Virus record (IMG/VR): IMGVR_UViG_3300021376_002797
Span: 1 to 64,000 of that record
DNA from: a virus
Length of the DNA stretch: 64,000 nucleotides
Reading direction: 5' to 3' (one strand)
Shown here piece by piece: positions 2,116 to 50,773 of this stretch. The position numbers and the translations under genes are program-made. Position 1 is the first letter of the stretch. Each line of letters begins with the position of its first letter. The notes beneath the pieces were generated by a model. It ran no database searches. It was not told the DNA's origin and saw only the letters and a list, made by a program, of their open reading frames with translations.

Positions 2116-3201
2116 ATGAAAACAATTTTAGAATATAATAAAAGATTTTATCAATTAATTGGGTCAACAATCGGTGATGTAAAACCATTAATTAATGAGT
2201 CTGAAAAAGATCCTGGAACAGGAATAAATACTTATGGTTATGCTATGGGTACTTACCCAACCTGTATTGGTGCCCGTGTCATCTGTCCAGGAGGAACCAA
2301 TGGTGATTGGGAGGGATCATTACCTAAAGTGTTGGAAATATGTAGTTTAACTAACTTAACACCAGGCTCTCAAAAAAGATGGAAAAAACTTAGTGCTTCA
2401 GGAAACATATCCAATCACTGGTGCGGTTTACCATATCAATATGGTGTTGATTTACCATGTAATCTAAATGATGGTGATAGAGGGTATGAAAATATTAAAG
2501 AGGGATTATTAGGTATGGGTTGGATAACAGAGACAGATGCTAAAAGTATCAATTGGAAACCCGCAAATAAAAATTATACAACATTTAGACATGACGGTTT
2601 TAAATGTCAAGTTTTATGGAGATGTGATGGGGATCATTTAGACCATATACATGTTGGTTGTAAAAAAGAAAACCCGTCAGTTGATAAAATGTCTGAAGAT
2701 TGTACATATAAAGATTCTATTAGTAACCCTAAATTAACCTTATCCAACTTTAAAAAAATATGGGAAGATAAAGTTGAAAAAGAAATAAAAAGTATGTTTT
2801 CAATTGAAAACCCTATAAGTTATGGACCCGATTTAATCAAGGTAGTTCCATTCAAAGATGCTTATTCAACTCTTGAGTATACATTTTTAGAGTATGCGAA
2901 CATATCATTTATTGGTGATGGTACGGTGGGTGTTAGTATAATTGCCTGGGGTGAAAGAAAAATTGATGAACTAACCCCTTTTATGTTTTTTATAGATGTT
3001 TACAAATCTGACAAAAATGGTATGAGTGTTGGAGAAATAAAAAGATTCGGATTTTTTGAAAACCAAAGTATTGGTACTTTAGAAACCGCAGCGGTTGACG
3101 CTAAAAATTACTTTTTTGGTCTTTGTAAACAATTTAAAGAGTACCCATATTCTAAAGAAGGACCGAAGGAATTTGAAAATGAAAATCCATTTGAAATTTA
3201 A
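2116..3201 (+). CDS. Putative Zn peptidase (M15/DD-peptidase-like) domain protein, paralog of 14782-16050
   Basis: SNH...D...HxDHIHVG motif; ~150-aa domain shared with 14782-16050; start moved to the ATG that begins the leader. Confidence 0.55.
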   Translation: MKTILEYNKRFYQLIGSTIGDVKPLINESEKDPGTGINTYGYAMGTYPTCIGARVICPGGTNGDWEGSLPKVLEICSLTNLTPGSQKRWKKLSASGNISNHWCGLPYQYGVDLPCNLNDGDRGYENIKEGLLGMGWITETDAKSINWKPANKNYTTFRHDGFKCQVLWRCDGDHLDHIHVGCKKENPSVDKMSEDCTYKDSISNPKLTLSNFKKIWEDKVEKEIKSMFSIENPISYGPDLIKVVPFKDAYSTLEYTFLEYANISFIGDGTVGVSIIAWGERKIDELTPFMFFIDVYKSDKNGMSVGEIKRFGFFENQSIGTLETAAVDAKNYFFGLCKQFKEYPYSKEGPKEFENENPFEI

Positions 3202-47675: not shown

Positions 47676-49892
47676 CTATTTTTTACGTTTTGTTGGTTTT
47701 TTTATTTTAACTTCAGTTTTTTTATCTTTTTCGTTATATGATAAAATGAATTTTGAACCTTTTTCAGGGTTGTCACTAATTACTTTATCAGTAACCGCAT
47801 CATCGACCCACTTTTGAATGGTTCTTTTCAATATACGAGCACCGAATCTAGTGTCAGTACCAACACCTATAATGTGTTTTTTTAATGTCTCATCGACCTC
47901 CAATTCAAAATCAATTAAAGAAACTCTTTCATACACTTTTTCAAGTTCCAAATCAACAATTTTTAATAGGTCGGTCTCATTAAGATCTTTAAAATAAATA
48001 ATTTCATCAAACCTATTTATAAATTCAGGTGCAAACTTTTTAAATAATTCTTTTTCTAATAGAGATTTTATCTCCTCTTCCTTTTTCTCAACTTTTGAAT
48101 TTGTTGCAAATCCAACACCTGTACCAAAATCTTGAACTATCTTTGTTCCAACATTAGATGTCATTAAAATAATACAGTTTTTGAAATTGATTTTTCTTCC
48201 GTGACCATCAGTTAAAAATCCTTCATCTAACATTTGTAAAAATACGTTAAATATTTCAGGATGTGCCTTTTCAATCTCATCTAACAAAATAACAGAATAT
48301 GGTTTGTTTTTAATTTTATTTAAAAATGGTGATCCATCTTCATACCCAACATAGCCTGGTGATGTTCCTGTGAGTTTTGATGTTGCAATCTTATCTGAAA
48401 ATTCACTCATATCTAATCTAATAAGTGCGTCTTCAGTATTAAACATATGTTTCGCTAATTGCTTAGCCAACTCAGTTTTACCAACACCTGAATTACCAAT
48501 TAATAATCCACTAAATATTGGTTTTTTAGGGTCATTTAATCCGACCTTATTTCTTTGTATTGCTTTTGATATTTTTGCAACTGCATCATCTTGACCAATA
48601 ACTTTTGTTGATAGCGTATCTTTGAGTGTTTTTAATTGTTCTGTCTCATCTGTTGATATTTTTGATATTGGTATTTTTGTAATAAGTGACGCGACATCAT
48701 ATACAATATCTTCTGTAACTTCTCTTTTGAATAAATTTCTATTTTTTTCAAATTCCGCCTTTTCTCTTTCTAAATCATTCAAAACTTTTCTTTCCTTATC
48801 TCTAAGATTTGCCGCTTCCTCGTATCTTTGACTGTTTATTACTATAACCTTTTCTTCTTTGATTTCTTGAGCCTGTCTTTTTAAATCTTCAATAATTTCA
48901 GGTAATTTTATTTCAACTTGTGATCTAGCTCCAACCTCATCAATAATATCAAACGCCTTATCAGGAAACTCTCTATCTGTGATGTAACGGTCCGCTAACT
49001 CAACACATAGTTTTAATATATCATCACTATAAGTTACTTTATGGTGATCTTCATATCTATCTTTTGAATTTTGAAGTATCTGTAAGGTCTCTTCTTTTGT
49101 TGAAGGGTCCACCATTACTTTTTGGAATCTCCTTTCAAGTGCACCATCTTTTTCAATATTTTTTCTATATTCTTCTAAAGTAGTTGCACCAATACATTGT
49201 AGTTCTCCTCTTGAAAGTGCAGGTTTAAATATATTTGAAGCATCCATCGATCCTGAGGCATTTCCCGCACCAATCATTGTATGGATTTCATCAATAAAAA
49301 TTATAATATCGGGGTTATTGTATAATTCTTCCATAATCACTTTCATTCTTTCTTCAAATTGTCCTCTATATTTTGTTCCAGCAACAATTGATGTCATATC
49401 TAATGAAACAATCCTTTTACCTGATAAATTTTGAGGACAATCACCCTCAAATATTTTCTTTGCTAAACCTTCAACAATTGCCGTTTTACCACAGTTATGT
49501 GAAACCACACCATTTGATATGTATTTTCTTTCATTATCTAACACCTCAAGATCAAAAGTATTATGAACACCAATCTCTTCTTTCTCAATAACCTCATGTA
49601 GGTTATTATCTTCAAAATAAATTGAGTTTCCAACATTTAAATTTTTTAATCTTAACCAATATGAATCATTCATAAATTCAACAAAATCATTATCACTTGT
49701 TTGCCCAACTTCAACTAAATGGTCTTCAGATCCTGAAAGTTCAGACCCGTTTGATAGTTTTATTTTAAAACAATTTTTATTTTGTTTTTTATATAAATTA
49801 CCAACAAGTTTATAACCCGACGGAGTTTTAATTTTGTATGTCCCACCTTCGTTTTTTACAAGGTTAAAAAATTCTTCAATTTTAATTTTCAT
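47676..49892 (-). CDS. clpC: IntC (133 aa) fused to the C-terminal part of a ClpC-like AAA+ chaperone
   Basis: ...SHN|CGKTAIVEGLA, GTKYRGQFEER, FIDEIH, LERRFQ, UVR-type M domain, GNSGVGKT, LLDEIEKAH, RFGAR. Confidence 0.92.
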   Translation of the reverse strand: MKIKIEEFFNLVKNEGGTYKIKTPSGYKLVGNLYKKQNKNCFKIKLSNGSELSGSEDHLVEVGQTSDNDFVEFMNDSYWLRLKNLNVGNSIYFEDNNLHEVIEKEEIGVHNTFDLEVLDNERKYISNGVVSHNCGKTAIVEGLAKKIFEGDCPQNLSGKRIVSLDMTSIVAGTKYRGQFEERMKVIMEELYNNPDIIIFIDEIHTMIGAGNASGSMDASNIFKPALSRGELQCIGATTLEEYRKNIEKDGALERRFQKVMVDPSTKEETLQILQNSKDRYEDHHKVTYSDDILKLCVELADRYITDREFPDKAFDIIDEVGARSQVEIKLPEIIEDLKRQAQEIKEEKVIVINSQRYEEAANLRDKERKVLNDLEREKAEFEKNRNLFKREVTEDIVYDVASLITKIPISKISTDETEQLKTLKDTLSTKVIGQDDAVAKISKAIQRNKVGLNDPKKPIFSGLLIGNSGVGKTELAKQLAKHMFNTEDALIRLDMSEFSDKIATSKLTGTSPGYVGYEDGSPFLNKIKNKPYSVILLDEIEKAHPEIFNVFLQMLDEGFLTDGHGRKINFKNCIILMTSNVGTKIVQDFGTGVGFATNSKVEKKEEEIKSLLEKELFKKFAPEFINRFDEIIYFKDLNETDLLKIVDLELEKVYERVSLIDFELEVDETLKKHIIGVGTDTRFGARILKRTIQKWVDDAVTDKVISDNPEKGSKFILSYNEKDKKTEVKIKKPTKRKK
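49494..49892 (-). mobile_element. Split intein C-fragment (IntC), no endonuclease
   Basis: Block B SGSEDHLV, block F TFDLEV, block G YISNGVVSHN, +1 Cys. Confidence 0.9.
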
Positions 49893-49916
49893 ATTTTTTA
49901 TTTAATTTTTTTTATT

Positions 49917-50210
49917 TCACATAGTTTCAATATTGTGACTATCTGCGTCAGAAACTTTTTCAATTTCAATCCAAGTATCGCCTAAAACACAACCTGGTTC
50001 ACCTAATATAATAGGGTTATTTTTCTTTCTTCTTGAAAGGATTTGTGCAATTCTATTAATCTCATTTTCTCTACCTACAACAGGATCTAATTTTCCTTCT
50101 TCAGCTAGTTTTATAAGGTCTCTTGAAAAGTTATCTAAAACAGGGGTTTTAGTTTTTGTTTCTGTTTGTTTATTTTTTGATTTTTCCATATCGTCAAATG
50201 ATTCAATCAT
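49917..50210 (-). CDS. clpC: N-terminal part of the ClpC-like chaperone (73 aa) fused to a 24-aa IntN
   Basis: LDNFSRDL...[13 protein letters not shown]...[16 protein letters not shown]|CVLGDTWI. Confidence 0.92.
49920..49991 (-). mobile_element. Split intein N-fragment (IntN, 24 aa)
   Basis: Block A C1-VLGDTWI followed soon by a stop. Confidence 0.88.
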
Positions 50211-50407: not shown

Positions 50408-50773
50408 ATGTTTAGTAGAAATTTTGAAAAATTATTTAATGAACTATGGTCATCAGATCCATTTTTTAATGGTGATAATTGGGAAAGAAAAAACTATAAG
50501 TCCGAAGATGGTAGTATTTCATTTACTTACATTACAAACAAACGAGGAGGACTGAATAAACAAGATGAAATATCATTATTAAAACAAAAACTTGATATTG
50601 CAGTTGATGAACAAAATTTTGAGGAGGCGGTAGAACTCAGAGACAAAATTAAAAATTTAGAGAAAAATAAAGAAGAATTTACAAAACTTAATAAAGAACT
50701 AGATGAATGTTTAAAAAAACAAGATTTTGAAAATGCAATCAAATTAAGAGATAAAATTAGAAGTTTAAAATAA
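50408..50773 (+). CDS. Tandem UVR (UvrB/UvrC motif) protein, putative ClpC adaptor
   Basis: AVDEQNFEEAVELRDKI and CLKKQDFENAIKLRDKI. Confidence 0.85.
   Translation: MFSRNFEKLFNELWSSDPFFNGDNWERKNYKSEDGSISFTYITNKRGGLNKQDEISLLKQKLDIAVDEQNFEEAVELRDKIKNLEKNKEEFTKLNKELDECLKKQDFENAIKLRDKIRSLK

Follow-up and report, generated by a model that had tools for sequence, protein, structure and literature searches.

An atypically split intein in the Walker A motif of a phage ClpC-like unfoldase

A divided clpC gene and the intein that divides it

Two neighbouring genes of a viral DNA record together encode a ClpC-like unfoldase, and the break between them falls inside the Walker A motif of the first nucleotide-binding domain (NBD1), raising the question of how an intact P-loop could be obtained from such a locus. 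We studied it in a 64,000-nt window (the whole stretch of DNA analysed here) of IMG/VR record IMGVR_UViG_3300021376_002797, where both clpC genes lie on the minus strand. The motifs, profile matches and fold model described below identify the element at the break as a class-1 intein naturally split at the site called S1 (after strand beta2 and before helix alpha1). The first open reading frame (ORF; 50210-49917) encodes 97 aa, comprising 73 aa of Clp NBD1 and a 24-aa N-terminal intein piece (IntN), and closes with TGA; the second (49892-47676) encodes 738 aa, which begin with a 133-aa C-terminal intein piece (IntC) and continue with Cys+1 and 604 more ClpC residues. The two ORFs share a frame in the window and are separated by 9 codons (stop plus spacer). 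Added together, the flanking host sequences (exteins) give 73 + 605 aa = 678 aa, the length of an intein-free orthologue, L009. The parts of the locus are as follows.

49992..50210, minus strand: N-extein, 73 aa, the start of NBD1 ending in IILGEPG, the first half of Walker A; matched by NCBIfam ClpK/ClpB/ClpA over residues 9-74
49917..49991, minus strand: IntN, 24 aa from Cys1 to Met24 plus TGA; block A, then an acidic His-containing tail (from ORF translation and alignment)
49893..49916, minus strand: spacer, 24 nt, A-rich, with a second in-frame stop, TAA; too short for any gene
49494..49892, minus strand: IntC, 133 aa; helix alpha1, block B S55-E-D-H58, block F D114, block G H132-N133
47676..49493, minus strand: C-extein; Cys+1-GKT, the rest of NBD1, a short UVR-like middle, the second nucleotide-binding domain (NBD2) with a G-V-G-F loop, D2-small, stop

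The spacer lies where sister alleles hold a homing endonuclease gene. A preliminary description of the locus had given the coordinates of both genes, the 73/24/133-aa partition, the 24-nt spacer with TGA and then TAA, and the motifs, and all of these were re-derived from the sequence.

The intein motifs are distributed over both genes. The block A nucleophile, Cys1, directly follows GEPG, and IntC carries GSEDH (block B), FDLEV (block F) and VVSHN (block G) before CGKT; S55-E-D-H58 corresponds to the T/S-x-x-H of block B in class-1 inteins. In an alignment of IntC from 36 family members, G26, H58, D114, H132 and N133 are invariant, and S55 is conserved in at least 90%. All clp alleles with close inteins retain both Cys1 and Cys+1, and across the IntC family the +1 residue, Cys in the window, is C, T or S. 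The search with intein profile hidden Markov models that the preliminary description proposed as a check gave a match above the cut-off for TIGR01443 intein_Cterm (NCBIfam), at residues 112-134 of the IntC gene product (17.0 bits, cut-off 15.6), and a weak partial match for TIGR01445 intein_Nterm. The latter covered profile positions 16-81, the first ~15 positions being absent from the large ORF, as expected if those positions lie on the other gene. Among sequences of known structure in the PDB, IntC matched the gp41-1 intein best (E-value (E) 3.7e-6), and VidaL at E 1.7e-3.

To obtain a fold model, the locus was translated through both stops, each read as Gly, giving IntN, 9 spacer codons and IntC in one chain, and was aligned with 43 relatives, including truly contiguous ones. 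The read-through model had a mean predicted local distance difference test score (pLDDT) of 88.9 and a predicted template modelling score of 0.82, and showed the horseshoe fold of the HINT (Hedgehog/intein) superfamily. IntN residues 1-15 were modelled with high confidence and form the first strands, while confidence was low for the last ~9 IntN residues and the linker; in IntC, where pLDDT exceeded 90 over most of the chain, a short strand is followed by helix alpha1. The break between the two gene products thus falls, in the model, between strand 12-18 (IntN) and helix 43-53 (IntC), and alpha1 of VidaL aligns with IntC residues 2-13. All of the top 50 Foldseek matches of the model are inteins or bacterial intein-like (BIL) domains, with VidaL ranked first (E 2.1e-11, target-normalised TM 0.90), followed by gp41-1, DnaB inteins and NrdJ-1. 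Natural inteins with a short IntN are split either at S1, after beta2 (VidaL, PolB16), or at S2, after alpha1 (AceL-TerL, GOS-TerL), and their IntN measures 15-37 aa (PMC13014065). Motifs, profiles and the fold model together bear out the earlier claim of an atypically split class-1 intein inside the Walker A motif of NBD1 of a ClpC-like ATPase that lacks the N-terminal domain.

The two intein pieces differ in charge, with a net charge of -5 for IntN and +8 for the first 50 residues of IntC. Electrostatic docking of the halves is known for split inteins, and this charge complementarity is consistent with such docking of IntN on IntC. The tail of IntN (window 49920-49946, compared with the tails in L083-L135 and L114-L125) forms a feature of its own. 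Its last 8-10 residues (..[DN]xx[TS]H[NK]IE..) show conservation among the clp alleles, and AAA+ host genes that are unrelated also have a His near position 19-20 of their 24-aa IntN; the contiguous allele L107 described below lacks the tail.

The host protein resembles Firmicutes ClpC (S. aureus 6em9, B. subtilis 3j3s) in its two AAA+ modules and its short UVR-like middle. Alignment of the intein-free orthologue L009 (678 aa) with S. aureus ClpC spans residues 150-805 of the latter (E 2.9e-199); both AAA+ modules, with Walker A and B motifs, and the D2-small domain are present, and the C-extein of the window matches the Pfam families AAA, AAA_lid_9, AAA_2 and ClpB_D2-small. The G-V-G-F of the phage protein aligns with the region of the F-A-G-F ClpP-docking loop of S. 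aureus ClpC. Unlike the Firmicutes proteins, the phage-encoded protein has no N-terminal Clp_N domain, since the alignment begins at ClpC residue 150 and only ~20 residues precede NBD1, and its Walker A reads GEPGCGKT, with Cys for Val. A search for ClpP (PF00574) gave no match in the 95-kb source record, which is itself ~32% complete. A protein that partners a protease, one that works with host ClpP and a stand-alone unfoldase are all compatible with these data.

Intein-free, split and contiguous alleles in related phages

A first scan of viral contigs with the large (738-aa) protein yielded 80 loci, and a second scan used the family alignment. In 76 of the 80 loci, the N- and C-exteins are contiguous without an insert; the junction is GEPG|CGKT with the native Cys in 66 of these 76 intein-free orthologues, and Val replaces Cys in distant ones only. 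The remaining four loci represent two alleles (L004, and L002 = L003 = L005, identical contigs from three samples) with the same intein at the same split codon. The N-extein of the window is 75-97% identical to those of close intein-free orthologues (at least 85% identity in the C-extein) and 54-81% identical to those of more distant ones, and IntN shows 79% identity when aligned with L002 and L004. The second scan added ~30 further split clp loci. IntN is 24 aa long in nearly all split clp loci and ends in TGA or TAA, and the spacers from the IntN stop to IntC measure 6, 7, 11, 24, 29, 71, 121, 243, 360 and ~1200 nt, in or out of frame. The comparison of clp alleles in related phages that the preliminary description called for therefore turned up all three kinds of allele, intein-free, contiguous and split, and the spliced product that it predicted, 678 aa with GEPG-CGKT, is identical to what the intein-free orthologues encode.

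Both halves of the intein are under strong purifying selection, because the ratio of nonsynonymous to synonymous substitution rates (dN/dS) among the window, L002 and L004 is low, at 0.09-0.13 for IntN, 0.055-0.115 for IntC and ~0.03 for the exteins, although dS is saturated (>1) between the three, so the ratios are approximate. No single error, stop reassignment or read-through fits the split loci, because the same split codon occurs with varied spacers, stops and frames. The preliminary description had argued that one sequencing error could not explain the split, and this holds, given two different stops in the window and the same split in at least 30 loci with differing spacers. The sequence comparison indicates that the split is neither an artefact nor a pseudogene; sequencing error, stop recoding or read-through, and a pseudogene were each rejected on the conserved split, the varied gaps and the low dN/dS.

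The sister alleles differ in what lies between the halves. In L004, the gap of 1216 nt holds a same-strand ORF of 392 aa at L004:1833-3011 that overlaps the start of IntC by 11 nt. On its own this ORF found no match in Pfam, PHROGs or PDB sequence searches, and its single-sequence fold was poor (pLDDT 40.6). It has ~98 relatives, however, and a profile of 42 of them matched the catalytic domain of I-Bth0305I (3r3p, 'mobile intron protein') with an E of 9.4e-6; members of the family carry DUF559/MTES_1575, and some are named Vsr endonucleases by their sources. From these profile and annotation matches, the inter-half ORF is identified as a Vsr-like, I-Bth0305I-type homing endonuclease gene. Across the split and contiguous clp alleles, the region between the halves takes the following forms.

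L085, L088-93, L098, L099, L101-103, L106, L109, L110, L115, L116, L121, L135: intact endonuclease gene of 382-402 aa between the halves
L086: broken endonuclease gene
L094, L104, L111-113: endonuclease remnants
The window, L083, L095, L097, L100, L105: gaps of 6-71 nt, endonuclease match not detectable
L107:2728-5217, plus strand: contiguous cis-intein allele, 829 aa, with 19 IntN-like residues running straight into IntC

The three split alleles of the extein tree lie dispersed among intein-free ones, which needs 3 changes, and the nearest kin of the window, L009 and L011, are intein-free. In the intein tree, which rests on 133 columns and has moderate support, the minimal-gap, remnant and contiguous alleles are scattered among those bearing an endonuclease gene. 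L107 nests among split alleles in that tree and may be the result of a re-fusion once the endonuclease gene had been lost.

Dassa et al. 2009 described 'fractured genes', in which split intein halves are separated by a free-standing endonuclease gene, and among which gp41-7 is endonuclease-less (PMC2677866). Judged from the allele series, the window is the endonuclease-less end state of such a fractured gene, and the simplest reading of the sequences is a mobile unit of intein and endonuclease that homed into P-loop codons, with repeated decay of the endonuclease and occasional re-fusion; we infer the direction of these steps from the same series. A further feature of L004 recalls the control elements that Dassa et al. 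said to arrive with the endonuclease: right after the IntN stop (L004:1785-1840) and ahead of the endonuclease gene, there is a short hairpin, GTGG-tatttc-CCAC, together with an extended -10-like box, TGTATAAT.

Trans-splicing and the alternatives

We favour a model in which the two gene products associate, trans-splice by the class-1 route and give the 678-aa ClpC, and in which the element is selfish; we consider this likely to be correct. The N and C genes would probably be co-transcribed and translated separately. A promoter and terminator scan performed at chance level and found no minus-strand terminator between the N and C genes; genes of this phage usually start behind A-rich leaders that have no Shine-Dalgarno sequence, and so does the IntC gene. 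The acidic 24-aa IntN is predicted to dock on the lysine-rich N-terminal part of the 133-aa IntC, completing the HINT fold. Cys1 would then form a thioester, Cys+1 would attack it, Asn133 would cyclise, and an S-to-N shift would yield the peptide bond, releasing a 678-aa ClpC whose P-loop, GEPGCGKT, is intact. Before splicing, NBD1 would be unable to bind ATP.

As for the origin, a mobile intein with a free-standing Vsr-like, I-Bth0305I-type endonuclease gene between its halves would have entered the clp P-loop codons, and the lineage of the window would later have deleted the endonuclease gene, leaving 24 nt. The pattern is that of a selfish mobile element, because the intein is scattered among near-identical intein-free alleles and travels with a homing endonuclease gene. 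It may persist since the phage needs spliced ClpC and precise loss is rare, rather than through regulation. A search of the 95-kb record yielded no further copy of the intein family.

Several points weigh against this model. We infer the association of the halves, the splicing chemistry and its rate from conservation and the predicted fold, and the two chains were modelled solely as a single read-through fusion. Block B has Ser in place of the usual Thr. The last ~9 residues of IntN, although conserved, came out with low confidence in the model. The spacer of the window is known from assembled contig sequence. The saturated dS and the moderate support of the intein tree count here too.

The preliminary description had gone further and suggested that splicing could act as a post-translational switch on phage proteolysis. 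On that account, the intein is kept to time or condition ClpC activity, for example through redox sensitivity of Cys1 and Cys+1 or through unequal expression of the halves, so that unfolding or proteolysis is gated. Conditional splicing is documented for other inteins, both nucleophiles here are cysteines, and the P-loop of unspliced NBD1 is necessarily inactive, as follows directly from its sequence. Purifying selection on both halves continues after loss of the endonuclease gene; however, selection of this kind would be expected in any case, since an intein that failed to splice would destroy ClpC. The closest relatives, with exteins 96-98% identical, have no intein at all. The patchy presence of the intein, its association with the homing endonuclease gene and the failure to find ClpP in the 95-kb record leave the proposal of a switch on proteolysis without support, and we regard an adaptive switch of this kind as unlikely. 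A variant that strikes us as similarly improbable is co-option after endonuclease loss, in which ClpC would be gated by fragment stoichiometry or redox state, because the NBD1 P-loop forms only after trans-splicing that depends on Cys1 and Cys+1, and in which the conserved His-containing tail of IntN would serve specifically for docking or tuning, a device that VidaL-type inteins lack.

It is very unlikely that the locus is a dead end, with an intein that no longer splices and ClpC either lost or made as two non-covalently joined chains. Splicing is predicted here from the sequence and the model, and the Ser for Thr in block B would fit such a reading, but all catalytic residues are invariant, dN/dS is ~0.03 in the exteins and ~0.06-0.12 in the intein, and the arrangement is retained across alleles whose inteins differ by more than 50%. 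An insert within Walker A is incompatible with ATP binding in AAA+ proteins, which would apply to the 157-aa insert here. Weakest of all, and in our view barely credible, is one continuous protein, in which a sequencing or assembly error, stop recoding or programmed read-through hides a cis-intein: the ORFs of the window share one frame, 9 codons apart, and the relative L107 is truly contiguous, but the gap of the window has two different stops, TGA and TAA, its relatives use TAA TAA or TGA, their gaps of 10, 14 and 32 nt (stop included) put the halves out of frame, the three contigs L002, L003 and L005 from three samples are identical, and terminase, portal and other long ORFs are intact under code 11.

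Known split inteins and the wider P-loop family

The kind of element found here is already known, since atypically split inteins, fractured genes and insertion into P-loops have all been described. The closest structural relative, VidaL (PDB 6vgv/6vgw), is likewise Cys-dependent and split at S1 (as defined in PMC13014065, which also cites it); its IntN has 16 aa, and blocks B, F and G lie on its long IntC. The two are only 22% identical, however; the present IntN has 24 aa with a conserved acidic, His-containing tail, and the host is a Clp unfoldase with the insertion in its P-loop. AceL-TerL (25-aa IntN, close to the 24 aa of the window) and GOS-TerL (37-aa IntN) are also described, in PMC13014065 and PMC10189870, as Cys-dependent natural inteins from phages in which a short IntN is paired with a long IntC. 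As presented there, both are split after alpha1 (S2) and their host is the large terminase subunit, whereas alpha1 lies on IntC in the clpC intein.

The locus shares with the fractured genes of Dassa et al. a conserved enzyme gene that a split intein breaks into two parts, both on one strand. A free-standing endonuclease gene between the halves is missing from the window, where 24 nt separate them, but is found in sister alleles (L004, L088 and others), and the window in this respect matches the endonuclease-less state of gp41-7 (PMC2677866). All but one of the Dassa inteins are split canonically, with an IntN of 88-105 aa and an IntC of 33-54 aa (PMC2677866), in contrast to the short IntN of the clp case, and their hosts are enzymes of DNA synthesis and repair and a terminase rather than a chaperone (PMC2677866). 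Furthermore, one orthologous gene here covers intein-free, contiguous, endonuclease-bearing, decaying and minimal states. The profile of the inter-half ORF family resembles the I-Bth0305I and Vsr-like (EDxHD) endonucleases in its catalytic domain (3r3p; PMC3239194), but this relative sits in sister alleles only and not in the window, and the N-terminal ~290 aa of the inter-half ORF are without assignment. No paper describing a natural ClpC or ClpB intein was found in the literature searched, which is weak negative evidence only.

With this locus, a Clp/Hsp100 quality-control motor joins the hosts of split inteins, previously mainly enzymes of replication, repair and packaging. The full natural series in one phage gene, from the empty site to a split with a minimal spacer, allows the 'gene-breaking' model of how split inteins arose to be tested directly. 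Judging from the sequences, a Cys-dependent intein whose 24-aa IntN is accessible to a peptide synthesiser, and which has many diverged, orthogonal P-loop relatives, is a candidate tool for semisynthesis.

P-loops are known intein hot spots (PMC4760082). When the IntC profile was run against 1.84 billion representatives, it matched 113 proteins (cluster representatives), 93 of which cover the C-terminal junction. More than half of the latter (52/93) start with a long IntC within 30 residues of the N-terminus, and in 57/93 GK[ST] comes next after the +1 residue (C, T or S). Other Clp proteins are among the hosts, and so, apparently, are other P-loop ATPases of several kinds, the latter judged solely from the residues after the junction. 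Viral contigs also hold non-Clp AAA+ genes that terminate in this 24-aa IntN (for example GxPG-CVLxDTKIKI); behind it comes an endonuclease gene other than that of the clp loci, or a remnant of one. Because 52/93 are long-IntC starts and 57/93 precede GK[ST], split inteins with a short IntN are far less rare in phage metagenomes than the characterised cases suggest. The preliminary description, which called such inteins rare, overstated the point in view of the 113 profile matches, the long-IntC starts and at least 30 further clp loci.

Two members of the wider collection have distinct arrangements. In the Clp homologue L145, Walker A is cut after GEPGVGK and before T by another split intein, whose IntN is 45 aa long and whose halves lie 30 nt apart.

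L145 split: stop of the N-fragment at ~2974-2976, spacer at 2977-3006, IntC start at 3007

In L118 (1834-3909, plus strand), which encodes a non-Clp AAA+ ATPase, 31 residues that resemble a leftover PD-(D/E)xK nuclease motif (..DFIVDG..VEVKPK..) link the 24-aa IntN in frame to IntC. Arg precedes Cys1 in this protein where the P-loop Gly is expected, and a second intein-like start (..APCVVGSTRININ..) lies downstream.

The 95-kb source record, for which CheckV estimates a completeness of 32%, encodes a large terminase subunit and a portal protein. Its source is a tailed phage, and probably a jumbo phage because related viral contigs reach 257-380 kb. ARAGORN found no tRNA or tmRNA genes across window positions 1-64000. 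Divergent from the adjoining ClpC N-gene lies a gene (window 50408-50773, plus strand) for a 121-aa protein in which Pfam finds two UVR (UvrB/UvrC) motifs (PF02151, E 2.9e-16); this protein may be an adaptor-like partner for the ClpC that lacks its N-domain.

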